A stretch of 61,558 nt of DNA, the filler included, from Hausera hauseri (Eukaryota), in the NCBI GenBank assembly GCA_046269625.1. It is 9 parts of 9 records of this genome, joined end to end, with 100 filler letters (N's around TTAATTAATTAA, not from the genome) between each part and the next. Parts side by side here need not be neighbours in the genome. Positions count along the whole stretch, not along the records: positions 36,773 to 52,089 come from JBJURY010455467.1; 8 more parts are not named here. One strand, written 5' to 3'. Positions 4,544 to 57,446 of this stretch are shown piece after piece. Under the pieces are notes generated by a model. That model saw nothing but the letters and a program-made list of their open reading frames with translations, did no database searches and was not told where the DNA came from. Numbering within the stretch: position 1 is the first letter of the stretch; each line of letters opens with the position of its first letter. The translations under genes and the position numbers were made by a program.

Positions 4544-5308
4544 CACAGCCATGATACAGTCACTAACGGACACATTTTGTAAACTTGGGGAATTTTATCT
4601 TTCTCATATTTGCCATATTCACGATTTGTGTTGATCTTATTCCGATCAGAGACAAACTATCATTGTATTCTCATCTTCGATACTGCGCCCTAGCTGTGTC
4701 TAATGTTCTGCTATCTTTTGAAACGCAGAGCAATTATTTAAAAATCAGTGTTATACCCTTGCTGTCTTTCGTGGAAAGTGTTGTACAACACATCGTGGAG
4801 AGTTTGGAATGTTGCTGAAAAAAAGATGCAGGTTATCAGTTACAATAATCTATTTGTTATTTCGCGATCAGGAAACTTGGAACCGCTCGTCGATTTTGTC
4901 TTTAAACTTCTGTTTGATTCACAGATTGAAGTACGCAAAGAATCGGCAAATATCCTTTTCGGTTTTATTCAGTTTCCTATGTTCGTTGTTGATTCAAAGT
5001 TTATTCAACAAACGAGTAGTAAAATCAAAAGGTTCCAAACAATAAAAATAAAACTAGATGATGTTGTCGAATCACACAGTGGAGTGTTGGGTTTATGTGC
5101 CTTCGTTCAGGTTCATCCATTTGACGTTCCGTCGGATTCACCCGAAATGTTGACAGCTCTTTGTAGGTATGTCAATCGTTCGTAATCCATGAGTGGAACA
5201 ATCGAAGAAACCTTAGCATAATACAAGAAGAATCGTCATGAAACTTGTCAAATGGAAAAACAATTTCAGTTCCGGTGAAAATTGTCCGGCGCAATAATCC
5301 TATATTGA
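4544..5308 (+). pseudogene. PSME4: Proteasome activator subunit 4 (PA200/Blm10) C-terminal fragment, disrupted
   Basis: LLFDSQIEVRKESANILFGFIQ and HSGVLGLCAFVQVHPFDVP match the PA200 C-terminus (LLEDEQLEVRE..ATTLSGLL; HAGVLGL.A.V...PYDVP). Continues as TIEETLA*YKKNRHE through in-frame stops. Confidence 0.8.
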
Positions 5309-15270: not shown

Positions 15271-15323
15271 ATGTATCTACTACCCCACTAAATTTTCGAA
15301 TCGATATTATTCGAAAACCATGT

Positions 15324-15449
15324 GAGTAACTATGACTCTCCTGTGGTATCCAAATGCCTCGTCATCAAATTAGTGACATGCATGAATGGATTAACGAGAT
15401 TCCTATTGTCCCTATCTACTATCTAGCGAACCTACAGTATCGGGAACGG
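15324..15449 (+). rRNA. Short, diverged 28S (LSU) rRNA fragment (pseudogenic)
   Basis: GAGTAACTATGACTCTC..GGTA.CCAAATGCCTCGTCATC.AATTAGTGAC..GCATGAATGGATTAACGAGATTCC.A.TGTCCCTATCTACTATCTAGCGAA matches the conserved eukaryotic LSU domain IV core; flanks are not rRNA. Confidence 0.9.
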
Positions 15450-17076: not shown

Positions 17077-19320
17077 TCAGAGCATTTTCAATAAAACTGA
17101 TCCCGTATGTTCTCTCCAGTACTTATTTCCAGAAATTGTATTTATCAATGTTGTACCATTGGAACACAATTTGATCAGTGGGATCATATAATCCTGAATG
17201 TCAAATGTAACCAAACTTAACTTTTCTATCAAACGATCAAAATGCCTTTGTTGATCACCATCAACAACATTATCGCCAAATGCTCTATTTTTCACCTCCT
17301 TATGATTCTGGTAAATCCATCGTTTCAATGTCGATAATCCATTGTTGGACTTCATGAGCCAAGATGTCAAATGCATCAAATCGTCCAATTTATAAGTATC
17401 CGATTTATGAGATCGACTTATCAAATACGAATTTAATAATTTTTCAATCAGATACGACTTTGATGTTCCAGAAAGACCCACAGAAAGTTGGTTTGATTCG
17501 ACATTGAATGAGTCATTGAAGTTTGTGAATCGATTCCACAAAATATCCCAATACTCGTATTTATCATTAAATTTCATTCCATAGTATAAAATGTCTTCAA
17601 TTAAATGTTTTGGCAATTCTGTACTTTCAGGAGTTTGAATCCACTGAAGGAAAATTTGGGAAATGCAGTCTAGAACTATCGAATTTTCAATGTCACAACT
17701 TAAACGTATTATCGTCATTTCATGAATTTCCTCTATGAGACTCAATGAATTTCTATTTTGCAGTTGTATCAAATCTTTTACAACAATCCTCGATATTCTT
17801 TCAATGTATTTCTTCCATTTCAAAAATATACTATCAGTTCTAAAGAAGTTGTACATCTTTATGAACAATCGATCGTAGAATATTCGCCACAGAATCGGGT
17901 CACTTTCTTTAAACAAATTGCTCATTAAATCCTTTGTTATGGACAAATTGAAAGTGCCCATTTCAGTGAAATAGAGACTATCATCATAAATGATAACTTT
18001 ACTGATTGGTGGAATTAAAGATAGATTGGATTGTAAATTAAAGATAATTCTTTCCCACAGAATGTTACTGTAGTTAACTCGTAGATAAGATCTCCCATTG
18101 CTGTTTAAAATAAAGAAATCATCCATTGCAATTTTCTGTTGAATTGCAAGTGAATTTGTGAAGTACAAAGGAGAATGACTCATTTTATCTTTTGTTATGT
18201 AGGCAACATAAATAGGCCACTTGTTAATTGTATGGCCCTCTTTGATTGATGGTGTTTGTCTAATGTTTATAATGTTATTTGTCGCATAATAATTGACATG
18301 TACAACTGGATACCCTGCATGATGTAACCATGGTTTAAAATAATCTTTCATTGTTGTTGCAAATGCTTGATTTTCTGGTCCGAATTCATCGAAAATATCG
18401 AATAATTGTTCCGTTGTTGGATTTCCTTTTCCATACTTTGCCAAATATTTTGTAATGGCCTTACGAAAATTTGACTGCCCCATTATCCAATTCATCCACA
18501 CAATTAAGTTATCTCCTTTGACATATGTAAAGGCGTTGAATGTTTTTCGGAAGTTTTTCGGTAAAGTGACATTTATTATTATTGGACTTGCTTTACGGCT
18601 ATTATCAAAGTCTAAAATGTATCGTCGGTCATAAGCATAAAATTGGTCTTTTTGACTTTCATTAAAATGCAGAATGTTGTAAAATGCTACTGATTCGAAG
18701 TAAGTAGCGAATGCCTCATTGATCCATATTTCACTCCACCAAGATGCCGTTATCCAATTCCCGAACCAGATGTGAGCTATCTCGTGACCAATTACCATGA
18801 AAGGTCTAAGACGTTTAGCCTGACTCGATCTATTAGAAACCAACAAATTTCTTTCTCTATATGTTATCAATCCCCAATTTTCCATGGCACCTGAAATAAA
18901 ATTGGGAATATAAATATGCGCCGTTTTTGGAAAAGGTGATGTAATATTGCAGTAATTTTCCAGAATCGTTTCTGCTGCAATTCCGTAGTTTAAAGCCAAT
19001 GTTGCACTATTCGATTCATTTTTCGGGAACCAAACTTCAACCGTTGAATTTTTAGTTCTTTGTCTTGTTATCACTTCGAAATTTTGAACCAAAGCGAAAG
19101 CGACTAAATATGTACTCATTGGAATTAAGGTAGGTTCGAATGTTGTTAATGTTGCTCGAACACCATGTGAATAGAACTCATCAGTAGAAATGTACTGAGT
19201 AGAATCAATAAAATGTTTGTTAGTCATTGGCATATTAGACAATGCCGTATAATGTTCTTCATGTATTATCGATATAGAATACGTAGCTTTAATGTCTGGT
19301 TGATCAAAACATGGAAACAT
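17077..19320 (-). CDS. M1-family aminopeptidase N, uninterrupted 747-aa ORF lacking the N-terminal region
   Basis: FPCFDQP, PMSTYLVAF, GAMENWGLITYRE, HEIAH-x18-E (HEIAHIWFGN...WINEAFA), YVKG, W..HAGYPVV, YLRVNY, ERAP1-like C-terminal domain. Confidence 0.93.
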   Translation of the reverse strand: MFPCFDQPDIKATYSISIIHEEHYTALSNMPMTNKHFIDSTQYISTDEFYSHGVRATLTTFEPTLIPMSTYLVAFALVQNFEVITRQRTKNSTVEVWFPKNESNSATLALNYGIAAETILENYCNITSPFPKTAHIYIPNFISGAMENWGLITYRERNLLVSNRSSQAKRLRPFMVIGHEIAHIWFGNWITASWWSEIWINEAFATYFESVAFYNILHFNESQKDQFYAYDRRYILDFDNSRKASPIIINVTLPKNFRKTFNAFTYVKGDNLIVWMNWIMGQSNFRKAITKYLAKYGKGNPTTEQLFDIFDEFGPENQAFATTMKDYFKPWLHHAGYPVVHVNYYATNNIINIRQTPSIKEGHTINKWPIYVAYITKDKMSHSPLYFTNSLAIQQKIAMDDFFILNSNGRSYLRVNYSNILWERIIFNLQSNLSLIPPISKVIIYDDSLYFTEMGTFNLSITKDLMSNLFKESDPILWRIFYDRLFIKMYNFFRTDSIFLKWKKYIERISRIVVKDLIQLQNRNSLSLIEEIHEMTIIRLSCDIENSIVLDCISQIFLQWIQTPESTELPKHLIEDILYYGMKFNDKYEYWDILWNRFTNFNDSFNVESNQLSVGLSGTSKSYLIEKLLNSYLISRSHKSDTYKLDDLMHLTSWLMKSNNGLSTLKRWIYQNHKEVKNRAFGDNVVDGDQQRHFDRLIEKLSLVTFDIQDYMIPLIKLCSNGTTLINTISGNKYWREHTGSVLLKML

Positions 19321-19322
19321 TC

Positions 19323-19495
19323 TGTATCGTGTAACTCGTCGAGAAAAACGTAATTCGAATTAAAAATTTCGTGACTCATTTTTCTCCAAGGCGGAAAATC
19401 GGGGTCCGTCTATGTGCCCGACTCGCCGGCGGGGGAAAGCCCGACCGTGTCCAACCGAATGGGCCGGAGGGCAAACGGTCGACGCTGGCACCACA
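19323..19495. mobile_element. 173-bp TGT...ACA LTR-like unit containing the conserved 109-bp GC-rich terminus (19387-19495)
   Basis: 19387-19495 is the reverse complement of 36336-36444 with 13 mismatches in 109 nt, no gaps. Flanks CATTC/TGGAC do not form a TSD. Confidence 0.75.
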
Positions 19496-22285: not shown

Positions 22286-22429
22286 ATTCTATAATCTGGT
22301 GAATAATTTTATCTTTTCTTTGTTCTGAGGAAATTTTATTTGCTTTATCCACCGCTAAGGCGCGTTGGCAATCCAATATTGGTTCCAGTTGACTTTTCTT
22401 CATCACCGTAATTGCGCTCGTTTTAGTCT

Positions 22430-23600: not shown

Positions 23601-24159
23601 TGTAGGGGGTACAAATTTGGCATTTTTTGGTCCTCTAAGTCTATTTCTTCGTTCGAACCAAGCTTTTTCTTGAGCGGAATAATCAATTTTAATGCTTTCG
23701 CTCTACCAATATCTTCTTCATATTTAGCGATAATCGATTTGTAGCGGAATAATAATTCGTAAAATCGACAATAAGATTCGGGAGGAAACTTAATTTCGAC
23801 ATGAGGTGGAAATTCAGCATACTTATAAGGCTTTTCATCAATAGTTATTGACGACACTCTATACGTATCTCCAACAGTAGTGTAAGCATAAAGCTTGACC
23901 GGAGTTTGTGCATTATTAGCTATTCTGATCGATACTCTACCGGAGTGTACTCTTGTTAATATATTTCTGAGTATTATATTCAGATCTAACGTATCACTTG
24001 GTTCAAAATATATCGGTTGATTGTCATCTTGCTCTATTTGGTCATAAATTATCATTTCCGTCCTCGGTGGAATGTCTTCGTCTACGGGTATCCATACCTC
24101 TCTAAATTTTTTATCCTTAGCGTTTTTCACGCCTTTATTTGGCCTGGTTTCTATTAACT

Positions 24160-24490
24160 TTCTTGTTTGTAAGTCAATCGCTATATTTGCTAGGCTTTTC
24201 AATAGATCACATCCTAAAACTACGTCATCAATTAATTGTTCCATAACTGCAAATTCGTTCTGGAAAAACTGTCCAACTATTTGGACTTCTGGATTCCATT
24301 TAAACATCGCTTTCGGTATTTAGCCAAAAGCTCCCGTACTTCCTGGATTTTTTGCGAATGGTGGATATAATTGTCCTCTTAGCGATTTAGGTATAGACTT
24401 GTTTTTAATGTAAGGCATTTTGGATCCTGTATCGATTAAGCCATAAACGTCCCAATCATCTGTAATGATTTTGGCGAAAGGTCTTCCTTC
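24160..24490 (-). pseudogene. Aspartic protease of family A
   Basis: YGLIDTGS (ORF 24320..24865) and DVVLGCDLL (ORF 23591..24307). Confidence 0.8.
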
Positions 24491-24939
24491 TATTACTGTT
24501 CCAAAACAGTTTGTTGCTACTTTTGGACGTTTAGTCGCCGATATTTTATGTCCATTGATTCGGATTTCTGGGGAGGATACTATATTCTCCGACAATTGTT
24601 TTAATTCTTCGTTTGGATACAACTCGTTGTTTTCTATGTGTAACTCTGCTGTTTCGTATGTACTAACTAATGGTTCTCGATTATTAGTGTGTAGTTCGGT
24701 GTTCTGGAAGGTTTTTAACCTTGGATTGTTCCAAACCGTTGATCTAATTTCTATATTCTGCGGTTCTCTCGGAATATCTTGGGACAGATTTGAACATTTT
24801 TGGACCATATATGGATTGTCGGTAACACATTTTCCGTAGGATCCCGTAACGTTTTGTTCATTCATAACGGTCTTCTACATTAATCATCCTTTTCCAGATT
24901 TCAGTCTGATATGAACTCATTGATCGTTTATCACAGTCT

Positions 24940-29872: not shown

Positions 29873-30201
29873 ACTTTTATACAGTTCTCCGCATACTGTT
29901 GTTCTTTTCCCGATATGTCCACTTGATCGCTAATCTGCTTAAGCCTTTCTAAATTTCGCTGTAGTATTTCTGGATCGTGACATCTAATTCTCATTTTCTT
30001 CAATTCATCGGCGTTTTTCCATGAACGTCGGACTTTCCACTTTTTTGGATCAAAATCCTCAATATTTCCAGTCTCTTTCTCACTAATGGGAAGTGGGTAG
30101 ATCTCGTTAATTTCATTAGTTGACTATTGTAGATTCTTTTATTTCGGTAGGTGTGAATGGATTGATTTTTGGTGTAGTTAGGCTATGTTCTGCGTCGCTT
30201 T

Positions 30202-31030
30202 CTACAAAGATATCCGTTTTTTCGTTTCTTCTATTTTCTTTCTAGTTATTTGTGACCGTGAACGACTACGGCCTCTATTTTTCGTCATTTTAAGTTTTAA
30301 TGGCTCCATAAATTCTTTTTCTGCTGCATCGTAATCGGCAGGTTTATCTACTTTTTCAACTGTAAACTCAGGCTCTGCATCTAAGTCGACTTCTGTCGAG
30401 GTGTCTAGTTTATCGGGTAGTTTATTACTCGTCGGAACACTCTTTTTCCGTGTCATATCAATTCGCTTGGGTGCTACTGCACGTTCATATTCAGTTTCTG
30501 ATTCTCCTAAACCATGATACACTTCTAGTAGTCTTAACTTATCTCCATATTCTTTTCTGGCCATCAGAATTTGTGGATTAGTAGTTTTAGACTGAGCGTC
30601 TAGGAAATTTCGCAAGTCTTGTATATCAATGATAGTACCTGTGTTTGCGCGAACACCATACTTTACTTCTAAATTTTCGTTAATTCCAATCATACTGGTT
30701 TTATTAGGCTCAGTAAATAAAACACTACGTGGGTTTGGACATGACCTTGAAATCTGTCCTTCTTTTCCGCAAGTGAAACAAACTAAATTTCCATTTCTGC
30801 CGACTCTCTGGCGGCTATCTTCGTTTACAGGTGACTTAGGCCGATTCGAACTTCTACTGTACTGGTTCTGTGCGCTATCCTTGCTTCTTCGGTTATCATT
30901 ATTTCGATTATCAGCATTACGATTCGAATAATCAGGTCCTTTGTAGTTTCCTCTATTCGAGTTAAAGTTTGGCCTGTTCATATTTCGGTCATTATAGTTT
31001 TGGTTAGTCCTGTAGACGTTATTGTTACTT
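30202..31030 (-). CDS. Gag C-terminus (Asn/Arg-rich + degenerate CCHC knuckle) of family A
   Basis: CFTCGKEGQISRSCPNP knuckle after an N/R-rich tract. Confidence 0.8.
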
Positions 31031-31130: not shown

Positions 31131-33160
31131 CATTAAAACAATGGATAAGATCGAGAAAAGGCTTTGTTGGGAATTTGAGAAAGAGGGGACTTGTAAATTT
31201 GGGAATAAATGTAAATTCTTGCATAATAAAGAAAAGAAAAATGAAACACGAATATGTAAATACTATCTGAATGGAAATTGTAGAGACGGAGAAAAATGTC
31301 ACTTTACTCGTGAATTGCCGTTAAAAAAGGATAATTTTAAAAAACAAGAAAAAACGTTCTATACACTCCATACAGAAGAAAGAATAAACAAAGCGGAAGA
31401 CGTAGGAGACGATATTGAGGCACGAGTTAACACTTACGTAATTCAACGATCAGAAGAGACAACGAAAGAAAATAAAATAGCTTTACGAACTGTAGACGTG
31501 TGGTTGTAGAACGGAGAGCAGAAAGTAAAGGTATGCATGTTATTGGACGATGCGAGCACAGAATGTTTTGTAAAACGCTCTATTGTAGAACAGCTGAAAT
31601 TAGTTGGTAGTCATAAAAGTGTATATGTTATGGTAGTGGGTGGGGAGACAACAAGGTCGAAAATGGAACGAGTAAAAATGATCTTACGAAGTAAGAACAA
31701 GAAGGTTAACATCCAATTTGAAGCGTTGGTTCTCCATGATCCGACTGGGAAAATGATGGCCGTGAATTGGGAGATGAAGAAGAACAAATGGCCGCATTTG
31801 GGAAATATAAAGTTTGCTGCTCAAAAATCGCTGAAATCAGTTGATGAAACAATCGGTGCAAACTATATGTATTAACATAGATTTATAAAAGAAATAGCGG
31901 TAAAGACAAATAAGCAGGTAGCAAGATTGATTCCACTTAAATGGACGTGTGTAGGGATAATCGGGAATGAAAAGAAAAAGGTAAGAGCCAACTTCGTTAG
32001 ATCATTCTGGACTAGAACCGAGGAAATGCAAGAAGATTGGAACAGACTATGGGAAGCAGAACAAGGATTCCAGGAAAGATCTCAGTTAAATAGCTGAGAT
32101 GTCGAGTTATTGAAGAGAGTGATTAGCGGAATAACATATAAAAAAGAAAGTTTTTATTGTTAAGTTACCTTTGAAGACAGAGAAACATGCAGACGTCAGT
32201 GATCCTGATTCGTCATAGATGGCGAAAAGTGGATTGGATCTATTAATAGAGAAACTGGATAAAGATATTAGAGTGAAATAGGAGTACAATAAAGTCATCA
32301 ACGAGTATGAGGAAAAATTGTATATAAGAGAAATATCAAAAGAAGAGCAAAAGGAAACGAAATGGTTAATGCCACATTTTCCCGTAATCAAGTTTGATCG
32401 CGATACCACAAAATGTCGGTTAGTATTTGACGCAGCTGCAAGGAATAAAGGGAAATACTTAAATGACTTCTTGGAGATCGGCCCAAAATTATAACTTGAA
32501 GTAGTTGACATTTTACTCCGAATGCGTCGCAACAATAAGTTTCAATCTGTGATATACATGAAATGTTTCTCCAAATTTTAGTGGATCCAACAGATAAAAA
32601 ATACTTACGATTTTTATGGAAGAAAAATGATAAAAAAGTTACCTACGAATTTAACAGATTGGTGTTCGGACTGAACTGTTCTCCCTTTTTAGAACAATCA
32701 GTGTCTATATTTAATACGGAAGGATTTGAAAAAGTATACCCGAGAGCAACAGAAACCATAAAGTACTCTACGTGTATGGATGACTGCATTGACTCAGCTC
32801 TAACAGGAGAGATAACAGAACTATATCATGAATTAAATGTAACATGGAATAATGCATGAATGGCTCCACACAAATGGGCAACGAACTCAGAACAACTTAT
32901 CACCGATATCCCATGCAACAAAAGATCAATGGAGTATAATGTATCAAAGAAGAACACATTGGCCACAAAGACGTTGGGAATGAAATGGAAGGTAAAGGAA
33001 GACAAATACGTATTCGATAAAAGAGACGTTACCGAACAAACGACAACGAAAAGGACCTTACTAAGCGCAGTCGCCAAAATATACAATCCCCTGGGATTTC
33101 TAAGTTGTTATACTATAATCGGTAAAATGATAATACAAGAATTGTGGATGCAAGCTTTAC
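31131..33160 (+). mobile_element. Degenerate BEL/Pao retrotransposon (zinc fingers - PR - RT - peptidase A17 region)
   Basis: LLDDASTECFV protease, TIGANY, HFPVIK..TTKCRLVFDAAA, MFLQI..YLRFLW, RLVFGLNCSPF, CMDD, KWATNS, TKRTLLSAVAKIYNPLGFLS (Pao signature). Confidence 0.9.
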
Positions 33161-36335: not shown

Positions 36336-36444
36336 TGTGGTGACGGCGTCGACCGTTTGCCCTCCGGCCCATACGGTTGGGTGCGGCCGGGCTTTCCACC
36401 GCCGGCGTGTCGGGCGCATAGGCGGATCCCGATTTTCCACCTTG
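36336..36444. repeat. Conserved GC-rich TGTGGTG terminus of the cargo-cassette family (element runs into gap at 36673)
   Basis: 96/109 identical to the reverse complement of 19387-19495; homology stops at CCTTG. Confidence 0.85.
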
Positions 36445-36672
36445 AAAATGTCAATTCTAAATACTTTTCGAAAGGACTAGTGACATTGTTGAATTAACGA
36501 ATTTGAGACCTCTACTGCAAGTTTCTCCGATTTTTCGATCTGATATTCATACCCACGAAATGGGTGTTCCCGATGATTCTATCACAGACATTTTCGAAAT
36601 CACTGAAATTTAGCAGACATTTTATTGGACACGATCTATTTTTCAGCGACATTCTCGACGTGTTAAATCAGA

Positions 36673-36772: not shown

Positions 36773-38767
36773 TTTCTTGATACGAACTTCGATATTTTCA
36801 TACTGTTTAGGCTCGGTAGGTGCAACTCGAATTATCTCCATCAGAGGTGCAATGTCTACTGAGTCCACACCCAACATTTCTAAATCATTTTCATTTCGTA
36901 AATTGAATGGTTTTTCCATCAGATGAATAACCGTAGCATGCTTAATTCCGTTCATCAGTCTTTCCTAATTACGTTTTACTCGCTTCAATTTTAGATTTGT
37001 TTCTCGTGCAGCTATTAATTCTTGATCTTTACTATTTTATCTTCGATTGTATTTTCAGTTTTAGTCTATAATTATGGAACATTAATTTAACTTCTTATCC
37101 ATAAAATTTATTCATTTTTCCATTTTTCCAACAAGTCCTGAGGTATTTCTTTAGGTTCATCTAAATTGAATGGTTCGTCTAATTTTTCTTCATTGTAAGA
37201 CATTATTTCTTATACATTCTTTCTGCGAGTTGTTGTTCTTTGCCAGAAATATCTACTCGTTCCGTTATCCTTTTAAGTTTTTATCCTCTGATTTCCCTCT
37301 ATTTTCATTGTTTGTGTCACCTTGACTTTTTATAAATCGTTGTAAATCATGTATTTCAATAACCATACTTGTATCACCACGAATACCGTAGGTTGCATCT
37401 AAATTCTCATTGGTTTTAATTAGACTATTTTTGCTAGGTTCATCAAACGAAATACTTCGAGGAATTGGGCATGATCTTACTATATGTCTTTCCTGACCGC
37501 ATGTATAGCAGATTAAATTGTCATTTCTGCCGACTCTTTGGCGATCATCTTAATTTATAGGTGACTTCGACCTACTCATAACTCTGTTATTACTTTGACT
37601 TAGCCAACCTTGAATATTATCCCCATTATACAACTGTCGTTATTTCGGTTATCATTATATCCATTTCCATTATCAGGGCCTCAACTATTTTGGTTACTAT
37701 CTGCATTATAGTTTGACTTATCAATCGAATTATTCGCACTTCGATTATTACTGTAATTTCTATTATCATACAGGTTGCTTCGATTATTGTTATTACCGTT
37801 CTGGTTTCTATTATCATAACTTCTATTACTGTTATTAAATCGTCTATTGTGTTGGTTATGTTTATCATTTCTGTTTCTATCGTTGCAGTCATTTTCATTA
37901 TTATTTGTATCATTTCTGTCATTTTGTTTCGTATATCTGATTAATGCCATTTGTAATCTTGAGCTAATTGCAAGGTTTTGTCTAAATTTTCTGGTCGGCT
38001 AAAATCAACTGTTTTATCAAATCTCTAGACCAAATACCATTAATTAGTTGAGTCGCCATCACGACGTGTAAATCCAGATAAATTGCCTTTTCTGCGGCAT
38101 TATGTTTTGCATCAATTTTTGCTTTAGTTACATTAGTTTTCCTTAGAGTACTTACATAACTATTCACAAATTTCTTTAATGCAAATGAAAATTAAGTTAC
38201 CCCTGAGTTCAAACTTCTGTTGCGTTCTATTCTGAAAAGCCACAACTTTTTGTTGCGGAGTCTCCTTCGGTAATAATTTTTGATTTAAAGCTCCTACCAG
38301 GAAGGATCAAGGTTTCTTTTCACCATCAGTGAGTTCACTATTGGCGTCAGCAGCCAGTTCTGCTTATTTAACTTACTGGTTTTATTTCTCTTATCATGAA
38401 TTTTAAGTTCTATAGGTTGCGCAGCAACAGTTAAGTCTATATCGGTCAATTTATTTCTGGTTAAATTTGTTTCAGACAATGAGCGTCTGTTGAATACTTT
38501 GTCTTCTCTATAAACCTTATTGCGCGCCTCGCATAAATTTAGATTTTCTTTACCGTTAGGAATTAAATTCAGTTTGTCGTATGACGTCTGTCTATCAATA
38601 TTAGTTACCTATTCGATTTATTATCGTTACTAGATTCTGATTTTCTGATATCCCAGATTTTAAATTCGTCAGTAAATCTTACGATTACTTAGTTGATGTG
38701 GTTGGTCGGCAGCACTGAGACGTGTTAGTTTAGCTCTCAAAAGTTTAGCTAGGTGCAAACTGTCTTG

Positions 38768-38779
38768 CTGGGGTCGCCA
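38768..38779 (-). promoter_or_regulatory. Primer binding site TGGCGACCCCAG (tRNA-Arg type)
   Basis: 2 nt after the LTR end (...CATAACA-TT-TGGCGACCCCAGCAAGACAG); near-identical junction at 53097. Confidence 0.8.
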
Positions 38780-38781
38780 AA

Positions 38782-39066
38782 TGTTATGTTTCGGTGGGCC
38801 CTAAACAACACCCAAACTATGACAGTAGACTTAAAATATAAATTAAAAAACGTGCCGGAAATATCCGGCGTTCTCGCTCAGATGAATGTGTCTAGATAGT
38901 TTTAAGTGCAGATATTGCATGCGCTTCTGTGTGAGAAATTATCAAATTCGCGACTTAACTATATATACTACACTGGATTTATCCTTAATGTTCTCGAATA
39001 TTCCTTAAGGGGTGATGGGAACTACAAACGAGATTTTACAAATAAGACTAATTTATTTAAATAACA
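38782..39066 (-). repeat. 5' LTR of family A (285 bp, TGTTAT...ATAACA)
   Basis: 6-bp inverted termini, adjacent PBS, and colinear blocks (CCTTAAG, TAAGGAT, TAAGTCG, CGAGAACG) shared with 52814-53094. Confidence 0.75.
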
Positions 39067-44155: not shown

Positions 44156-46614
44156 AAAGTGAAAACATACGAAATGATGTGAATATGAAAAAAGTTCTAA
44201 AAATGATTCAATTTATTCATTTAATAAATTTTTATTTGTAATACTGATTTTTCATGGAGATTGAGATAAATTTTCATTGTTTGTTAATACCGATGCAATT
44301 TTGTTTTTGATTAGCATGTATGCATTTGATGTTGTCGCGGTGGTGGATCTAGATTTGTGCACTTAACTCCTCACGCTTATCGAATGTGGATTTTGTCAAT
44401 TTTATCAACTACTACTGCACTTCCGTCATTTTCTTTTTCAGTATCGTATTCTGCTCCAGTGCATATTCCTGTATACATGTCTGATTGTCCGACTGCTACT
44501 TTAAAAGATCTAATTCTTTTTCCTTGTTGCATCTCGAGCTTTATGCTATCCCATGCTAGTCTACTAGTTTGTCTTGTTTACAGTGTTGTCTTTCCAAATT
44601 CATTGGAATCGATGGAGTTGTCGGTTTTATTTTCGATAAATGCCCATGCATCTGTCCACAATGGAAAACACTACAAGATCTACGTAACACACATTCTACC
44701 CGTCTAACGATATTAACTCCCGCTGTTGATAGTGCATAAATTTTTCCTTGGTTTCTAATTTGTGCGGTCTAGCGTCTTTGCACATTTGTAAATCCCTCAA
44801 TGAGTACTTTTGGCCAAGTTTGAATTTATCACAGTCGTATACTGTCACAGCTCCCTTTTGTTTTACGAACTCCATCAATGTTAGGAAATTAATTGGCCAA
44901 TTTGAGTCATTTCCTCAATTATTGCCCTTTGATGTCAGATTCCTTACTACGTCTTCGATTCTGCTAACATTAATACTACAGGATGGTCTAGACTGGCAAT
45001 CGTCTTCTTTTCCAAACAATTTAGGTCAATTTATTTCACGGGGCAGCTTCCTGACTGCTTTCTTGGCCAAGTTGGTGGCTTTATTAAGTTTGTTTTCCCA
45101 CATTGGGTTCGTTTTAATAACCAAGTATGGCAGTTCTTTTCTTAATTCTTTTATTGTATTTTCTACCATGATTTCTCAATCATCATTTCGTCGGTCAGAG
45201 TACATTGTAGCATCTTGTACACCCATGACTCGTCCTACACATTGCTGTCTTCTGACTTTATGTGTAGCTTCTTCTTTTATGTCCTAATTGGCGATCGTAA
45301 CTACTACATGATTTGTTTCGTTTGGGATAATTCCAACATCTATTAAGGATTCTAATTCATCTAATATTCTTCCTCTGAAATATAGTGGATAATTTACGTC
45401 GCTTTTAGCCGTAGTTTTACGTCTCTAACGCATGAGGCCGCTGTGCACTCACATTCCTCTTTATCCATCCATTCAGACCACACTTTTACTTTAATCGTCA
45501 CATCGGGTTTATCCCTTAAGATTTTAGCACATTTTCTTCATAAGAATTTCGGCACAACACTAAAAGTCGTGTTTTCGCTAGATGACTAAGTTAAAGTAAG
45601 GATAAGTTGTCATAGTCTATTTTCAGTGGTATTTACATTAAGTAGCTCAATTAAATCTCAGTTAGCGCTGGATACAAAACCACTGAATTTCCGATTCTGT
45701 GAGTACATTCTCATTTCGTGAAGATATACTGGTGTTTTCGGATTTTCTTCCATTATTGCATCCATATATGCATCCCATTCTGGATCGTTCTCATTTGCTG
45801 GAGGTCCGTAGTCAATAACTGAAGTATATAGTTGCCGTATTAGATGTGAATTTTCTCGTATCATACCAAGTCTCCTTTGTATCTCAGTTATCCGTACTGT
45901 TTGAAGCCCGATTCCATAATAGTAGATATGTTGTAGGATAATCAATAATTGGCACATTTCGTCTGCTTGACTAAATCCTTTTCCTTGATAAGTAGTCCAT
46001 TCTGATGTTAATTCGTGTTTCTATCTTGACGCAAATTTTGATTTATTGGCCATTTCTAATTCCGTAAACTCGTACTTTTTCCTATAGGTTTTGATTTCTC
46101 TAGTTACCTTTTCCATTTCAGTTTTCCTTTGGTTAGTACGAATACGGGTTTTCTGGGTATGAAGTATCTGGCTTTGCAATCGCCTCATTTTCTGATCACT
46201 GATTTCGGTTATTTCGTCTAATAACAATGTTAATTTGTCCACTTCCTTTAACGTTTTAGATTCCGAATCGATTTATTCAATTAGTTTTATACCAAAATTA
46301 GATTCCTCAATGATAAACTCGTGATCGATCATTGTTTCTATTACGTCAGTGTGCCATTTCTGATCTGATCCTGGTATCTAATTTGAAGGATTGTGCAGAA
46401 ATTTTAACGCACCTTCTATAGAATTTTTGTAATCGGAACAGGTATCTAATACTTTTAGTTCTTGTGATGTAATTTCACTTAGGGGTTTAGTTTTCAGATA
46501 CTGGATTCCTTCTAAACGAATATTTCTAGTTTTCTTCAATCATTTTGTAAACTTCACTCAGCAACGATATTTCTTCGTTTCTGTTCATAAATTTCAGTTG
46601 TCGTAATTAATTCG

Positions 46615-48388
46615 TGTAGATTAGATGGGTTTTCGTTCCAGATTTATCGGATTACATAAACAATGTCAAATTCTTCTGATCTGTATTAAATTGTACACAC
46701 CTCATGGTGCCATGCTCGACTATAGCAGGTCGAGTTCAATAACACCATAATACAAATTTGGCATCGACTAGGAATTTCGTATATTTTATTTCTGAAATCT
46801 GAGATAAATCCTGCATGTTTGTGTACGAATTTCTCACAAGGAATAACCTCCAACAAACCTTTAGCTAAACTTGTTTGAACTTTACCGGTGCATAAAATTA
46901 TCTTCCTATCGCTTGGAATCGTTAGCAATTTAATAGTTTTGACAGTTTTTTCAGGTATTCCTCACTAAAAAACGATGGATCAACAATGACAATGCCAAAT
47001 TGATTGATTAAATTTTCTGGAACTTCCGTTGGAAATTTGTAATCATATTTATCAAACATATATTTGTTAAATCGATTGTCACGTTCAAGTAAAATCGAAT
47101 AGATGCTTTTCTTCTATAATTTCAAATGCAGAACGAGACACCTCACAAACCACTTTCGATATTTCAGTTTTATTGACATTACTGCATTTACCAATTTTTC
47201 CGTTATTTCATCATCATACCGAAATTGTGATAATTGCCGATTTCCTTTATCTGTTTAGCACCGGAATTGTCATGTACCTCTGTCCTGTGATTTTCGGATA
47301 AACTCTGTTAGAGCTTTCAAAGTTTCTGGAGTTAAATACAAATCATCGTCATAAAAAATCATTCTGAAATTTTCAAGTCAAAAGTTTAATTTAGATTAAA
47401 CGTGTTTATTAATTTAAACATGTAGATAATTTAAATTTTTTTCGTTACATTCAAACGAAACGTCCATTTCTTTTGAGCAAATAAACGCGAAAAAAGAAAG
47501 AGAGCAAATCGACTATATAGCGAACTCCGTACTTGTCCACTATTGCACTAACCATGATAAAAATAAATATAAAAAATCACGGCAACGTTTCGTGGGTAAT
47601 AAATTTTTTAACAAATGTATAATTAACGATTTATACTGTATAGCTTTTATGGACAAAAATGTTTTTAAAGTCAATCGTTGAAACAATGGCATTCAATGCA
47701 GTATTTTATCAACAGTACCGATTAGATCTTTAATCCATTAAATGCATCTGTGGAGATTGTCAAATTGACATTGTTCGACAGATAGAGAGATTCGAGTTTA
47801 CTCAACAACGAATACGTTTTGGATTCGGTAAATTTCACTTTGCAATGACGAATTAAGAGTTGTTTTATTCAAATATACGACGGAACAAATTGGGTAAAAT
47901 TATCTGAAGATAACGAGGAAATATAAAAATTTTGATTGGTAGCTGAGTTTTTCGACGGTTGATGAGATTTTGTCGGGGAGATTGTTTCTTCCTGGACTAA
48001 TACAGACTAAAGTTTCTTTAAGACACGTCTGAAAAAAATGGGACAAATAATATCTGGATATGAATTGGTATTGAATACATTGTTAAGTATGACTATGACT
48101 GCTTTGATAATATTCATTTTTATATCGATTCAAACGTTATTTAAGCCACTGAATTTACTCGGAACTTTGTGATAAAAGAACTCTGCCGTCTCTGAAAACA
48201 ACTTCGGGTGATGGAAATAGATTCTCATGCCATTCACATAATTTTATTCTTGTGGGGTGATCAGTTGTCTGCCAATTGAGCAAAGACGAAAAAGGCGAGG
48301 GCTGAGGAGGAAAACATACCGGTCTAGCGGTGGGGAGAGCCACGTTTAACACCGAAATGGCGTCGACACCTCCAACCACGGCACCACA
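46615..48388. mobile_element. 1774-bp TGT...ACA cassette with 5-bp TSD ATTCG carrying an EEF1AKMT1-like gene
   Basis: ATTCG(46610-14)|TGTAGA ... GGCACCACA|ATTCG(48389-93); family A accessory-region sequence lies on both sides. Confidence 0.88.
46780..47362 (-). pseudogene. EEF1AKMT1: EEF1A lysine methyltransferase 1 (N6AMT2)-like, disrupted
   Basis: Manual translation gives MIFYDDDLYLTPETLKALTEF, LSQFRYDDEIT, LLERDNRF, YDYKFPTEVPENL, FGIVIVDPSFFSEEYLKK, KIILCTG in order, matching N6AMT2 motifs LS..ALAAL.EF, LSQFWY, EYD.RF, YDYN.P, FDIVIADPPYLSEECL, KILLCTG. Confidence 0.8.
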
Positions 48389-48593
48389 ATTCGCGTGTGA
48401 TAGAATATCTGTTTCTTCTCTCATAGTGTCCAAATCCCGCATGATTTCATTCATTTCTTGTTTCAGTATCGGTTTGACATTTGGATATTCCTCTATACGA
48501 TTAATTATTATTCGGGTTAATTCAATCAACAATTCGGACCATTCTTTTAATTGGTTAGCAATTATCAGTTTGGCCACCTTTGTTTTATCCAGC

Positions 48594-50265
48594 TATTCAT
48601 CCTTTCATATGGAACTTTCAGTGGACAATGAGTGACAAAGGGCCAATGCCAGAATTCGGCACGGTAGCGAAAATCATCGATCTTATGCAACATTTCTTTA
48701 TGGCGATGAAGAAAAACCAAAAGCACGTCATTTATTATCGAATATAATAAATCTGTCAATTCCCTGTTTGGTGTTTTGTAATTGCTGTAGTCCTTTTCCA
48801 AATCTTTCTGAACCAAAAACGCATCGATGTCGGTAATATAAACCATGATATCTTCAAGAATAATATCCTGAAATCAACCATAAATTTCTTATTCATAATT
48901 TTCACCGCCTCAACGAATACTCCAATAATGGAAAATATTTTACTCTGATTATTATTGACGATTAAAGAATTTCGATATGCTTCAAACGAGGGATTTCCGA
49001 ATAAAATCTAAGAATTTGTGCTGATCGCCTTTTAATAAGTTGTGCTCGCCTCTGATCATCTTTTAGTCGAGGCAAATTGCGGCAATTACGTTGATATTCT
49101 TCACCGAGTGGTCGTTGGTTCTGAACAAGATCATAATAATGTGTGTTGCTTGTCAGTACACTATCCGACGAATAATAATTTAATAATCTATAGTTATCAG
49201 TTTCAATTTTCGTCGCGCGTTCTCTAAAAAAATTCATTACCAATTCTTCAACTTCTCCAACGGAAGGGATAGTCACAGATAGCTAACTTGATCTACCGAA
49301 TCCGTCAACTACGACTGACTGTTCATTAACCGACTGTAACGAAGGACAGACTTCTCGTAGATCGTTGACGAACGGTTTGAAATATTTAAGTTTCTGACCA
49401 GTGAGTCCACTGTCTGTACGAACAGTCAAATTAACGAGAAACGATGCCGATTGGAGCACCCGTAAAAGTGACTTGTAGATCAGACTGTTGCCAGAAATAA
49501 TCAATGATCGAATAGGAATAGAATGGAACAAGACTCCAAGATGGAAAACATACGACAGTCCGTTAATGCTGAGATCCAGTTCATTTAACGATAATCTGCG
49601 GATCGTCTGCAGCAAATTGGTATCGGCCTTCACGACAACGTCACAATGCTGGACGCTGAATGGATCAGGAATTTTCCGACAACTCGTTTTAAACATATCC
49701 AAACTTATATCCATCAATTTGACAAATACAATTGCATATTCCGATGTTGATCAGTAATTGTACGTTTGTAACAATCGTTCCATATGATTATTGTGTACCG
49801 TTGCTACATTTGCAATTCCTGTCTAATCCACTCGGAATCGAACTGAATATCATGTGTAAAAGTAACCTTGGCCTATAAATTTGAACCGAACTCTTGAATA
49901 AAATTTTTTGAATTTCGAAATTTAACACTTCGACTGGAATCCTGATTTGCGTCCACATTTGTTTTTTTAGTGGATATTTCAATGCGCTCATAATTATCAT
50001 TTCTGATAAATTTCGCTACATATAAAAATCTCTGTCAAATTGTTATTTCTGCCGTTATGTATTCATTTAAACTATTTTTTGTCCAAACATAAAAAAACGC
50101 CACAACAAACGGCACACATAAGGGTCAACAAATCCGGCATTTTCAGTTACGTACGACACAAAAGTTGGAAGATCAGACCCAACTATGGATCCGACGCGGC
50201 GGCAACGGACGCCCGGCCGTGCCTGAACAAATGGGCCAAAGGCACCGTCCGCTGTGGGCACCACA
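48594..50265. mobile_element. 1672-bp TAT...ACA cassette with 5-bp TSD CCAGC carrying an NXF1-like gene
   Basis: CCAGC(48589-93)|TATTCATCC ... GGGCACCACA|CCAGC(50266-70). Excision restores minus-strand AAAATGCTGGATAAAACAAAG = KMLDKTK, homologous to KMLNKAI in ORF 28799..29296. Confidence 0.88.
48650..50000 (-). pseudogene. NXF1: Nuclear RNA export factor NXF1/TAP/Mex67-like (RBD-LRR-NTF2L), disrupted, no UBA domain seen
   Basis: WTQIRIP (cf. WFKITIP, RBD); LNELDLSINGL..IRSLIISGNSL (LRR); LVMNFF..RLLNYYSSDS and YQRNCRNLPRLKDDQRRAQLIK..EIPRLKH (cf. [29 protein letters not shown]); FSIIGVFVE; SIINDVL (cf. CIVNDEL). Confidence 0.75.
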
Positions 50266-52089
50266 CCAGCATTTTGTGGTAATCTTTTAGTCTGTCGTCT
50301 GGTCCTTTATAAATCCCATAATTTGTTTGATATAGTTAAACTAATTTTTATATTCGTCGAACTCCAAGATACACGCTTCAATTAGAGCTTTTGTTTCTTC
50401 ATTATTTAAATTCATTATTCGGTTTCTTATGTTATAAATTTTTAATAGCTTGTCGTTTTCTTTCTTGATACGAACTTCGATATTTTCATACTGTTTAGGC
50501 TCAGTAAACGCAATTTCCATCATCTCCATCAGGGTTGAGATATCTACTGCGTCGACACACAATATTTTTAAATCATTCTCGTTTCGTAAATTCCATGGTT
50601 TTTCTTTCAATCTGTTCATATTACGGTTTACTCGTTTTGATTTCGAATTATTTTCTAACGTTGCTATTAATTCTTGAGCTTTAATTATTTTCTCGTTGGT
50701 TATGATCCCAGTTTTGGTCATAATTCTGGAATATGAATTCCACTTTTATCCACAGATTTAATTCATTTTTCCACTTGTCTATCAAGTCCTGAGTTACCTC
50801 AATGCTGTTCCTAGCCAGAAATATCCACTTGTTCAGTTATCATTTTAAGTTTTTTTATGTTTTGCCGTACTATTTCTGGATTCATCGGTGCGTCTCCGAT
50901 CTGTCTTAGCTCATTGGCATTTTACTTGGCTTCCTGATTTACCACATATTTTTATTGAATTTTTCAGATTGTTCTGTCATCCTCGCTAAGAAGTAAATGG
51001 CATATTTCGTTTATTTCATTTGCTGATTCAGTTGGTTCCTCAACAGTAATTGCCGTATTAAAACTAAGTTTCACGTCGCATTCTTCAAAGATTTCAGTCT
51101 CTTTTGCTTTCTTTAATTTTCTTTAGTCATTAAGGATCGTGAACGGCCTTTGCGTTTCCGTTTTATAGATGGGCTTCGACCTCTATTTTTCGTTATTTTA
51201 AGTCCTGGTGGTTCCATAAACTCCCTTTCGGCTTTGTCGTCTTCATTTCCTTTCTCCACGTTTTTAGTTGTATACTCAAGTTCCGCGAATAAATTTACGC
51301 CTATAGATGTTTCTTGTTTATCTGTTTTATTAAGTGTTTTATTTACTATGGGGATATTCTTTTTTCTTGTCACATCGGTTCGCTTCGGCGCTATGGAGTA
51401 CTCATATTCGGTTTGTGGCTCTACAGACTGTTGTACACTTCCATTAAGGACAACTGATTCTTATATTCTTTTCTAGCTTTTAGAACTCGCAGATTATTAG
51501 TTTCTCCTCGTTTTCTCGGTATATCTTCCTAAGTCTTTCATTTCAGTAACCATATTTATGTCCCCTCGGACACCATATATTGCCACGAAGTTTTCGCTAG
51601 TCTTAATCGCACAAGTTTTATTAAGCTCAATGAAGGATACTCTTCATGGATTCGGGAATGACCTTGCTATATATCCTTCCTGACCACACGTATACCATAT
51701 TAGATTGTAATTTCTTCCGAGTCTTTGTCGACCATCTTCATTTATATGTGATTTCGATATACTCATATTTCTATTATTGTTCTGGCCCCACAGACCTTGT
51801 CCATTATTCTCATTCTGTCGACTATCATTATTTAGATTATTATTATTTCGATTTCCATCATCAGAGTTTCTACAACTATTTTGCTTTGTATCTGCATTAT
51901 AGTTTGACTTTCCAGTGGAATTATTCATATTCCGGTTACTACCGTAATTTCTACTATGCTATCGGCTATTTCTATTATCACTATTACTGTTTTGGTTTCT
52001 ACGTATTATAATAACTTCTATTACTGTTATTAAAACGTCTATTATCTCGGTCTCCATTATCGCTTCGGTTTTTATCGTTGTGATCATTT

Positions 52090-52813: not shown

Positions 52814-55507
52814 TGTGAAATATATTCTTGTATTCTAAAGTTACTTTTTAGTTTTCCAGTCGCTCCTTAAGAGGGACTTGACTACAGTAAGGATTAAATT
52901 CAAGAGTAAAATTCATGGCTAAGTCGAGACGTTTTAAAATTCTGTACAGGATATTGTATACAGTACACACATATTAAACTTGGTACAACATTTTAACGAG
53001 AACGTTAAAACTTACCTGTATATTTAATTTCTTAGATTTCAGTGCAACTTATTGTTATAGTTGGGCGTTGCATATGGCACCTTCAACTATAACAATTGGC
53101 GACCCTAGCAAGACAGTTTTCACCTTCATAGATTTTGACTTTCACAGAAAATTAACGGAATATTAACGATCAGCGCTACCGCATTAAGTAATTGATTATA
53201 GAATTGTTAAGAAATCAAATTTGGGATATAAAATGAAACCCTTAGTATTTTAACGGCATAATATTGACTTGAGAACAAATATTGATAGACACAAATTATA
53301 TGATAGTTTAAATTGAGTTACTAATGATAAAAAAATATTGATTTACGCGAAACACGCAATAAGGTTTATAGACAGTATAAAACATTGAATAGACGTGTGT
53401 TATCTGAGACAAACTTAACTGATATTGAACCGATTGACTTGAACGTTGCTGAGCAATCCATAGAATTTAAAATTCCTGATAAGAGAATTAGAACTCGTAA
53501 GTTAAATAAGCAAAATTTAAATAATGCAGAAAATATGGCTGAAAATGAAGCAATAGCGCAGAAACTGGACATTTTCACATTTGACTCTCTGAATCTACCG
53601 GCGAACGACGGAGACCCAGACGGATTGAATTAATTCTTAAGAACTTATAAATTGCATGCAGAAGGTGCCGGACTTGCATTTAACGTAATGATTAAGCTTT
53701 TGTCATTATATTTAAAAATTTGGCCGCTGATGCCTATAGTGAACTCATTGACGACGAAAAGAAATTTTGGTTCTCCCTAGTAGAAGCCATAAATCGAAAA
53801 TTATTACCGACGGTAACTCCGCAACAAAAACTTATTGCTTTCCAGAATAAGATGCAATAGAAGGGTGAATTGGTTATCCAGTTTGCATTTGCATTAAAGG
53901 AACTTGTGAATAGTTACGTGAATACATGAAGGATAGCTAATGTAGCTAAGGCTAAAGACGATGCAGAGTGCTATGCCATAGAGAAGGCAAGTCCTTCAGA
54001 TTTAGACGTCGTGACGACGACGCAATTAATAAATGGTAGCCGCTCTAGAGACATAGTGAAATAGTTGATTTTAGCTCGACCAGAAAACTTTGACAAAACC
54101 TTGCAGCTAGCCCAAAACTTAGAAATGGCACTGGGTAGATACGCCAGCCAAAGCGATAGAAATAATCGTTATGATAGAAACCGGAATGATAATCGCGGTA
54201 GAGATAATAGACGATTTAATAATAATAGAAATTATGAAAATAGAAATCAGAATAGTAATAATGACTACAGAAATAACCGACATGGCAGCAGAAATTACAG
54301 CAATGATCAAAATAATTCATCTAGCAAACCAAACTATGGTACAGATAGACATCCAGGCAGTCATAGAAATATTAATAATGGAAACCGATATAATGATAAC
54401 TTGTTCAAACTCACGACATGTTTCGTTCGTTGAACCTAGCAAAACTAGCGTAATAAATAACTAGAATTTAGACGCAATTAACGGTATCCATAGAGATGCA
54501 AGTATGGTTACTGAAATGCAGGACTTACGACGGTTTTTAAATGTCAAGTTGATACTAACGAACCCAAATTTTTAATGGCTAGAAATGAATATGAGCATAA
54601 GTTACGACTGCTAGAAGTTTATCATGGTCTTCCTGAGCCAGAAACTAAGTATGAGCGCTCGATAGCCCCACGAAAATAGACCGACATGGCACGGATAAAG
54701 AATGTTCCCGTAATTAATAAAGTGACAGATAAACCGGATAAACCGAAAACATCAAACGAAGTAGATTTAGACGCTGAGCCTGAATATACGGTCGAAAAAG
54801 TGAACAAGATTACAGAAGTTGGTGAAGAAAAGGAATTTATGGAGGTCGCGATCCCCAGTGACTAAGGAAAAATTAGAGGAAGCAAAAGAGACTGAAATCG
54901 ATTCAGAAAGCGACGTAGAATTCTCTATAAACACACTAGAACTCGGTTCAATTACACCCATTTGAGTAGAAGAGTTAACAGAATCGATTATTAAAGTAAA
55001 CGAAATATGTCCACTTCCTTTAAGCGAAGATGAAAATGATAAAATGAAAAGTTTGATAAAAAGATATGGAAAATCCTGGAGTCATGAAAAAATGCTGACG
55101 CATTAAGAAAAATCAGAGACGCTCCTATAAATCCAGAAACAATACGACAAAACTCAGATGAACTCCTCTGCATAGCCCAGCAAATAGATATTACTGGCAA
55201 AGAGAAACAGTTCGTCCAACAAATTCATAGAAAGCTAATGTCATACGATGAAAGAAAATTGGATGGTATAATCGACTCAAATGAATCGGCAGAATTGCCC
55301 CGAAAATTGATAGAAAATGGAAACATCAATTAAGCCTGTGGATAAAGAGTGGAATTAGAGCTCAAGAATACTGGGCTAAAACAGAAACCACAACTAAAGA
55401 GAAAATAATTAAAGCTCAGGAATTACTAACGGCACTTGAAGCCAACGCAAAGTTAAAACGAGTGAGTCGCAAGGTGCAAGGATTGATGAGCAGAATCAGA
55501 TATAATA
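52814..55507 (+). mobile_element. Family A copy 4: 5' LTR (~52814-53094), PBS (53097), gag and start of accessory region, cut by another Gypsy
   Basis: ...CTATAACA-AT-TGGCGACCCTAGCAAGACAG; NRRVLSETNLTDI, ILARPENFDKTLQLAQNLEMAL, EVDLDAEPEYTVEKV, IIKAQELL..LEAN.KLKRV shared with the other copies. Confidence 0.85.
53097..53105 (+). promoter_or_regulatory. Primer binding site TGGCGACCC (tRNA-Arg type)
   Basis: 2 nt after the ACA LTR end; same as 38768-38779. Confidence 0.8.
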
Positions 55508-55509
55508 TG

Positions 55510-57446
55510 TGTGAGGATATAATCGAGCAATGAGTATTTACGAACGATCAAATTTCGCTTCAGCGAACATACCAGGCGGTGGGAAGTTTCCAATCCTCCC
55601 TAAGCGGGGCGACGGTGTGGATGGCGTGGATGCACGCAGCTATCATGACGACTTACGCCACAACGGACATCTTCAAAAACCAATTGTTGCCAAACAAATT
55701 CAGGAAAGGTGACGACGTGGAGAAGTTCATTAAAGGATGTGAAAAATTCTTTAAATACATTAACACCCCAGCGGCGAAACGGTAAATCATGGTTGAATGC
55801 CTCTTGGATGAAGAAGCACAAGAAAGATACAATGCAATAGACGCAAATATAACTGGATACCAGTACCGACTACGGAAGGCTTTCGCCTAACACTCAACGC
55901 TGTGTGAAAATCTGAAAGAAGCGCTTGAGTACAGAATAAATGGAGCAGAACGGGAGGCTTACTTCAAGGCAATCGAGAAACTGCTGGATAAAGTCATGAA
56001 ACACGATCTTTCTCGCGAGGCTCTAAAAGAGGAACTATTGTTCCAATGTTGTAACAATAGAGAGATGAGAAGAGAAAAATGCGTCAGTAACAAACGAGAC
56101 GCGGAAACTATAAAGGAAAAAATACGGAAGATGCACGAAGTAAAGATTAAGACCGACGATGTAAACATGGTCAAGAATTATCCGGGGATCGGTAGAAGAA
56201 GCTACCAGGAAGTGGCAGCACAAAATATTAGGAAACCAGTTCCTAGAATCAACACGACGCCACTTAGATCGCCAAATAGTAAATTTAAGTGTTGGACATG
56301 CCAGAAAGAAGGATATGAGAGCAAAAGGTGCACCACATTGAGACCAATTACATGTTTTGGATGCGGAAAAGAAAGACAAATAAGCAGGCAGTGTCCCGAA
56401 AGAAATCCACTAAGATGCTACTCATGTGATTACAATAGGGGACATACCGAAAAGGAGTGCTACACCAGGCTGGAGGGGAAAAGAGAACCAGGATGGAATA
56501 CATACAAAGAGAAAAGAAGGTTCGGGGATAATCTGTACAGAAGACGGGGCCGAGTCGCAAACGTAGAGCAGGAAGAAACAAAATCCGATCAGGAGTCACT
56601 TGCCCCAAAAGGCCGAGCCTCTATAGAAGTGGAGCAAATCGGGGCACTACAATAGATTCCGTTTCCCAAAATATCGTTATGTATAATAGTAGTATTATAT
56701 CAAACACTATAGACGGATCAAGAAGAAATGGATACGGAGATATATTGATGGATATTTATGGATATTTAGTATGGAAATTTATGAAAACGGAAAATTTCCA
56801 GAAAGTATCCTACAACGGAATGGAGGAAAGTGGGAACGATACTCAGATCTTCACGCTAGAAGAATTGTATGTCGAACAGACATCATACAGGAAGTTTAAT
56901 GGACGACCAGGAATCAAATTAAAGATACAAGACAGATGGGAAGATTGCTTATAGGACACAAGGGTCAGGGTAATCGTCATAAGCAAAAAGATCGTGGATC
57001 AACTTGCAAATACACACATAGAGAAATCAGATACCACACTACGATGCGCAAACAACAACCCCTTATATTGCCTGGAAACACTTACAACAGACGTAGAAAT
57101 CAAGAGTCTAAGGAGACGTGTGACATTTCTGATAGTGTCGGAATTACGCCCAGAAATAATAGGTGATGTGGACCTGCAAAAGGCATTCGGAATAGAACTG
57201 GGGTGGAAACACACTGAAACGGAAATATTACAACAAGATATATGCAACATGGAGGCCAAGTTCGGCCGTAAGGTGAGTAACCAAGAACGAGTCAATAGAG
57301 CGAAGGAAGCTCTTCAGGTGAGTGACAACAAAGAGCTACTCAACATTATACAGAAATACCCAGAGGTACTCATGGCCGACAAGTGGGACATAGGGTGCAC
57401 ATCTCTCATCAAACACCGAATAGACACGACAGGAGCGCCGATTAAT
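55510..57446 (+). mobile_element. Second Ty3/Gypsy family: short putative LTR (55510-55662), gag with three CCHC-like knuckles, protease, pre-RT region
   Basis: LLPNKFRKGDDVEKFIKGCEKFF gag N-terminus; CWTCQKEGY..C, CFGCGKE..SRQC, CYSC..GH..KEC; DCL*DTRV protease remnant, IIGDVDL, DIGCTSLIKHRIDT. Confidence 0.8.

Follow-up and report, generated by a model that had tools for sequence, protein, structure and literature searches.

Host-gene fragments behind a GC-rich CsRn1-like terminus in two target-duplicated insertions of Hausera hauseri, probably rewritten solo LTRs

The window analyzed here is a 61,558-nt stretch of DNA from Hausera hauseri (GCA_046269625.1), made up of nine contigs separated by spacers of the form N44-TTAATTAATTAA-N44, and consists mostly of decayed Gypsy, BEL/Pao-like and Polinton-like sequence in AT-rich animal DNA. 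It contains two insertions, units A and B, each of which begins with a GC-rich terminus of ~100–110 bp (the head), carries degraded host-gene pieces behind this head and is enclosed by a 5-bp target duplication; two further heads, C and D, lie elsewhere in the window, and A and B are the only complete units (Table 1). The units are probably solo long terminal repeats (LTRs) of CsRn1-like Gypsy elements, in which the body of the LTR was overwritten by host RNA via template switching.

Both units are real insertions, as a preceding interpretation of the sequence alone (hereafter the sequence-only reading) had proposed. Their target duplications are exact, and the three flanking pieces of A and B align one after another along a paralogous Gypsy open reading frame (ORF) at 28799–29329 (amino acids 16–29, 29–85 and 86–118), which confirms that the units interrupt a retrotransposon ORF. 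Two sequencing runs with short contigs were used for comparison, X1 (containing 0.68 of the window's words) and X2 (0.14); X1 is perhaps close to the source of the window and does not count as independent support, and depth in the runs is not equivalent to copy number and is used solely to separate "very many" from "few". X1 contained contigs from related elements without units A and B, and the net difference at these empty sites was 1779 (1774 + 5) in four of the six computable joints for A (1780 and 1781 in the others) and 1677 (1672 + 5) in one of the two computable joints for B (1676 in the other). The depth of unit A in X1 was low along its whole length (21–66). An X2 contig stopped aligning exactly at 50265 and continued with 44 different letters, which fits another insertion site, and an X2 contig ~90% identical to the last 180 nt of A departed exactly at 46615.

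The plus-strand ends of the units are TGT..ACA (A) and TAT..ACA (B); on the minus strand, A ends in CTACA and B in GAATA. End comparison revealed no terminal direct or inverted repeats in either unit, the inverted end match being limited to four of five bases in A and two of three in B, and none of the 12 frames contained a transposase, reverse transcriptase or other retroelement domain, in agreement with the sequence-only reading. Of the features of a solo LTR (TG..CA ends within one duplication, no internal region), A has all, and B ends in TA. The element interrupted by A and B did not donate the heads; in its relatives, the LTRs end at 38784 and 53094 in a short ..ATAACA terminus, followed by the primer site TGGCGACCC. 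Within the interrupted element, positions 50756–50900 showed high depth in both runs (3,494 in X1).

All four heads begin TGTGGTG. With the first 9 nt excluded from the test, the heads at 19495, 36336 and 50265 were homologous, since none of 1000 shuffles equaled the score of any of the pairs, whichever of three parameter sets was used. For the head at 48388, in contrast, 798–927 of 1000 shuffles scored equally in the comparison with 50265, 125–781 in that with 36336 and 13–108 in that with 19495, the last being borderline at best; a profile of heads B, C and D did not recover it, and only its first 9 bases are common to the other heads with confidence. Three heads thus form one family, and the fourth is a GC-rich head that has its first bases in common with them. 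The four copies of a ~110-bp terminus described earlier are borne out for three of the heads but not for the fourth, and the earlier notion of one conserved terminus and one family was overstated: the head of A is low-copy and not demonstrably homologous, and B has a second high-copy part. Beyond approximately nt 110 the copies are unrelated, as had been claimed (none of the six pairs beat shuffles, including the 88%-identical C and D). In X1, the summed depth of head B was 14,123 in its bin and 31,458 at 50224, compared with 15–22 for the locus's own contigs, so that head B is ~1000-fold deeper than its locus, whereas head A stayed at 33–66.

No matching target duplication was found for head 19495, and head 36336 lies 337 bp from the end of its contig at 36672. 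Head C sits within decayed Polinton-like sequence and is faced by a further GC-rich end at 16441–16620 (+), which begins TGTTATGAG; this TGTTATG end was considered as the far end of a unit C and rejected, because it has no matching duplication and is unlike the heads. A structured RNA in the head was not supported: no Rfam family matched, folding z-scores ranged from −1.6 to +0.6, and two-sided change was seen in 5 of 32 pairs (three sequences). Head patterns had no match in the viral contig collection in two scans, nor did two retroelement proteins have related loci there; a metagenome scan for the head pattern returned three matches, all in GC-rich contigs unlike the heads outside the pattern itself.

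The heads point to a known clade of Gypsy elements. The integrase motifs of CsRn1-clade LTRs are TGTGGYG...MSYYAMA (PMC3601003, Table 3). The first of these, the 5' motif, stands at the start of each of the four heads and occurs in the window at a rate of 1.6e-4 per position; the ends of A and B were set independently by their duplications. The end of A (ATCTACA) fits the 3' motif at six of seven positions, and the variant ends reported for CsRn1 (AAA and ATA; PMC2582038, section 6) include the TGT..ATA seen in B. Insertion by a retroviral-type integrase and the carriage of host genes, both suggested earlier, are supported, and the terminus matches the 5' att motif of the clade; after this match, an interpretation of the heads as a tRNA primer site (TG followed by TGG..) was dropped. 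AATAAA is found 176 and 143 nt from the unit ends, a weak signal in AT-rich DNA. The window also contains CHCC-gag elements (1144 and 6767), a further likeness to the clade, but no head-bearing unit linked to a tRNA-Trp primer site and a CHCC gag. Clade LTRs differ from the units in averaging ~330 bp and in their target duplications, typically 4 bp with one 6-bp case, compared with 1.7-kb units and 5 bp here; the consulted portions of the clade descriptions mention no cargo (PMC2582038, PMC3601003, PMC3630058), and the heads here are not linked to pol. As an aside on these gag genes, two tandem CHCC-type knuckles lie in one gag at 6674–6820 (+), the first without its first Cys, and a similar pair lies at 1144–1240 (−).

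The cargo of both units is a mosaic of dead coding sequence, with leucine-rich-repeat (LRR) and EEF1AKMT1 pieces in A and an NXF1-like piece and a repeat piece in B. The EEF1AKMT1-like piece comprises most of a coding sequence, with PF10237 positions 2–114 and 105–152 recovered in two frames; a second copy at ~90% identity was present in X1, and a comparison of the piece with the protein collection gave no match. The candidate retained intron of A has a pattern that 38 of 2000 shuffles also yield, and that was picked after inspection; other copies of ~90% identity align across this 85-nt stretch, so that an intron here, if real, would have been retained.

In unit B, positions 48974–49771 are colinear with NXF1 residues 107–381 (E 0.0046; ~800 nt) and match PF22602 (E 2.5e-7); the piece was extended to ~48900 by eye, and its depth in X1 was 89–183. 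Typical copies of the adjoining repeat piece diverge at 48616 and 48895, beyond which they continue into different sequence that is constant among them, in X1 and X2 alike, and the 93-amino-acid frame of the piece matched nothing in Pfam, the protein collection or the Atlas. A contig in X1 that differs from B (depth 58.6) extends from the NXF part as far as 48870, ~25–30 nt inside the repeat piece, and thus ends as a contig entering a repeat would; contig joints in the runs follow a 31-letter bridging rule, so a shared joint can only be deduced from them. Sister copies therefore probably share the NXF–repeat joint, and amplification would have followed capture. The LRR piece and likely intron of A and the repeat piece of B, as well as the composition of the window from nine joined contigs, had been overlooked in the sequence-only reading.

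Behind head C, the aminopeptidase ORF extends for 2.28 kb without an intron-size gap, with its GAMEN and HEXXH motifs intact; its best matches are 25–35% identical and spread across many phyla, and the frame would appear to be either very young or kept by selection. A PSME4 piece of 490 nt (within 4544–5420, +) lies in sense and without an intron-size gap ~140 nt before a primer-site-like sequence, TGGTGCGACC, at 5410, in an element with a CHCC motif at 6767 and reverse transcriptase (RT) and RNase H downstream. Among 150 RT relatives of this element, 7 carry CHCC and 44 CCHC; among the 17 of at least 45% identity, 2 carry CHCC and none CCHC, a weak indication. Overall, the EEF1AKMT1-like, NXF1-like and tentative aminopeptidase assignments of the sequence-only reading held (PF10237; PF22602 and NXF1 colinearity; the M1 ORF), as did its claim that cargo reads away from the terminus: all five identified gene pieces are in sense, reading away from a head or toward a primer site. 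The intron criterion of Tan 2016 gave no intron-size gap in the NXF, aminopeptidase, PSME4 or EEF1AKMT1 coding sequence, and one likely retained intron.

Table 1 Features of the heads, units and cargo in the window (positions along the whole stretch)
Feature	Position	Strand	Remarks
Left target duplication of unit A, ATTCG (5 bp)	46610..46614	.	Length backed by empty-site contigs
Unit A, 1774 bp, TGTGGTG...ATCTACA	46615..48388	-	Likely solo LTR filled with host sequence
EEF1AKMT1-like coding piece, broken by stops and a single frameshift	46809..47362	-	PF10237 E 2.7e-15; no intron-size gap
Candidate retained intron, 85 nt, GTAA..TTTCAG, 81% AT	47364..47448	-	Ends one base before ATG
Degraded leucine-rich-repeat gene piece	47668..47871	-	LRR_8 E 4.3e-4, below Pfam cut-off; LRRC4B E 5e-4; weak
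Head A, GC 57%	48289..48388	-	CsRn1 5' motif at start; homology to heads B–D not established
Right target duplication of unit A, ATTCG	48389..48393	.	
Left target duplication of unit B, CCAGC (5 bp)	48589..48593	.	Length backed by empty-site contigs
Unit B, 1672 bp, TGTGGTG...GAATA	48594..50265	-	Likely solo LTR filled with host sequence
Terminal 22 nt of unit B	48594..48615	-	Too short for sharing test
High-copy repeat piece, 280 bp	48616..48895	-	X1 depth 1,620–8,112; LTR body or another element
Degraded NXF1-like coding piece, from LRR to NTF2-like	48900..49771	-	No intron-size gap; several copies
Head B, GC 61%	50156..50265	-	Very high-copy family; homologous to C and D
Right target duplication of unit B, CCAGC	50266..50270	.	
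Head C	19386..19495	-	88% identical to D over 109 nt; far end not located
Head D	36336..36445	+	Adjoins DUF7041-like gag (other strand; E 9e-5, below cut-off)
M1 aminopeptidase ORF, 760 codons without stop	17077..19359	-	Without ~230 N-terminal residues; starts ~30 nt behind head C
C-terminal PSME4 piece, degraded, in 5'-LTR position of CsRn1-type element	4781..5272	+	Colinear with PSME4 1650–1824, E 2e-13
Target of A and B: decayed Gypsy-like element, different family	44510..52089	-	Paralog with Monjiviricetes-type fusion gene

LTR elements are known to copy host mRNA by template switching, to form multi-gene chimeras and to copy these again (Tan 2016, PMC5131818). The simplest way to extend this scheme is to place the switch within the LTR itself. 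By analogy with that work, host transcripts would be co-packaged with the element RNA, and the reverse transcriptase would switch onto them and back, with the switch presumably landing directly behind the head, where the joint is located in three heads. The head itself could not be lost, perhaps because the integrase site that adjoins the polypurine tract, and possibly the promoter, would go with it; U3 is otherwise the most variable part of the LTR (PMC3601003). The chimeric LTR would then be copied to both ends and overwritten again in later cycles, giving the observed mosaics; integration would create the 5-bp duplications seen at both units, and LTR–LTR recombination might finally delete gag-pol and leave the unit alone.

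Several observations weigh against this solution. The likely intron in A, also present in other copies, suits unspliced RNA or DNA rather than mRNA; the parental genes were not seen whole, and intron loss is thus not demonstrated; and unit A is low-copy throughout. A and B have no common tail, the end of B fits MSYYAMA at just three of seven positions, and the duplications are 5 bp in both units, not the 4 bp of CsRn1, for which reason we call the units CsRn1-like and not members of the clade. Within the window contigs, no head was found beside a polypurine tract or paired around gag-pol. At the PSME4 locus, the contig contains no head, the end fits the 3' motif at three or four of seven positions, the primer site deviates from the tRNA-Trp consensus, and the PSME4 piece may be flanking DNA rather than LTR cargo.

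The sequence-only reading had offered both solo LTRs and one-ended complementary DNAs (cDNAs), and the former are better supported, by the PSME4 piece in a 5'-LTR position and the NXF–repeat joint in other copies, though not proven. A one-ended cDNA would be begun on a host RNA, jump to the 3' end of an element RNA and copy no more of it than the U3 head and the polypurine tract; after integration in trans, one of its ends would be genuine and the other a cryptic CA or TA end, and each such unit would be a dead end. We regard this origin as unlikely, in spite of the joint fixed at approximately nt 110 in three heads, the absence of a common tail, the TA end of B and the low copy of A, all of which it accommodates. 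The X2 contig leaving at 46615 fits host 3' sequence up to the very end and equally suits a sister insertion, and the several copies of the NXF part of B, its joint with the repeat elsewhere, the position of the PSME4 piece before a primer site and the six-of-seven fit of the end of A to the clade 3' motif argue against dead-end products.

Capture at the DNA level, in which gap repair later brought host DNA into ordinary solo LTRs and the LTR ends were passive, is still harder to credit. Single-copy Pack-TIRs arise mainly by gap filling (PMC8277862), and the likely retained intron and upstream sequence in low-copy unit A, found also in other copies, would be expected from it; however, all pieces are in sense, coding stretches of 0.5–2.3 kb lack introns, and the joint position is identical in three heads. 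A Pack-type derivation from a cut-and-paste transposon with TGT..ACA ends (Ginger1, Ginger2/Tdd) is very improbable and largely refuted: TGT ends and the 5-bp duplications of TDD-4/5 would fit, but Ginger elements have terminal inverted repeats (TIRs) of 40–270 bp, their animal members make 4-bp duplications and Ginger1 targets CCGG/CCGT (PMC2836005), and TIRs of the kind expected of a Ginger or MULE transposon are absent from both units.

If the solo-LTR reading is extended, the heads may mark a Gypsy lineage that keeps its LTR as a standing cargo slot, with only the 110-base head fixed and the rest supplied by host transcripts and rewritten in each cycle; we put this forward tentatively, as a possibility that we do not favor outright. 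Such a slot would imply roughly a thousand distinct chimeras of head and gene in the genome, among them some whose frames are intact, as in the 760-codon aminopeptidase, and hence a genome-wide exon-shuffling engine.

Comparison with known systems suggested a variant of an established process. The products described by Tan 2016 resemble those found here in their partial host genes, multi-gene chimeras, adjoining LTR-element sequence and further rounds of copying, and a fixed switch site is reported there for the Gypsy element BLASTOPIA; in those products, however, the retrocopy lies between two LTRs in place of some internal ORF sequence, whereas here the cargo follows directly after the first 110 nt of the LTR, with no internal region or second LTR. 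Reviews likewise place captured cargo between the LTRs (PMC6431247). In barley BARE-2 (PMC13317346), template switching altered the LTR itself, in what is described as a single event with sequence of another retrotransposon, in contrast to repeated capture of host genes in an animal. Pack-TIRs and Pack-MULEs share host-gene pieces in a mobile unit with a target duplication, but are described with TIRs and DNA-level capture (PMC8277862), compared with sense, mostly intron-free cargo without TIRs here; the separate Pack-type DNA system suggested earlier is not supported. Capture by LTR elements is known. An exact-word literature search of titles and abstract starts, which does not establish absence from print, returned no report of host mRNA inside animal LTRs or of host genes captured repeatedly next to an invariant LTR head in animals.

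Every insertion would duplicate cargo carried in the LTR, and such cargo would persist through the recombination that removes the rest of the element; it would also sit behind the element's own start, so that host-gene pieces could spread far more efficiently. The heads would further show how little LTR conservation replication needs. Units of this kind would be annotated as host pseudogenes or escape repeat finders. As the cargo in A and B is dead, it gives no evidence of a new gene function.

Several other elements were observed in the window. A Gypsy-like element at 19917–31030 (−) encodes a Monjiviricetes-type fusion glycoprotein (PF24664, E 4e-29); instead of following pol, the glycoprotein gene is located in the interval from a long gag-like ORF to pol. 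The element has decayed relatives at 36773–38827, 44510–52089 and 53050–57446; chuvirus-type glycoprotein capture has reportedly been described for Pao elements. In two of these relatives, the last 42–43 nt of the LTR ends (38784–38826, −; 53053–53094, +) form a TG..CA hairpin that immediately precedes the primer site and whose stem, at 53053–53094, is perfect over 11 bp; the possibility that these 42-nt hairpins (38784, 53094) are whole mini-LTRs was rejected, as similarity extends ~200 nt further upstream. Decayed Polinton-like DNA polymerase B sequence was found at 1780–4443 (−), where PF03175 with endonuclease VII lies at 3072–4442, and, by eye, at 12000–14500 (−) and 19496–19816 (+). A 98-nt match to eukaryotic large-subunit ribosomal RNA (Rfam RF02543, 56.7 bits) is located at 15294–15391 (+), and a decayed element at 31131–33160 (+), BEL/Pao-like by eye, has CCCH zinc fingers at its start.

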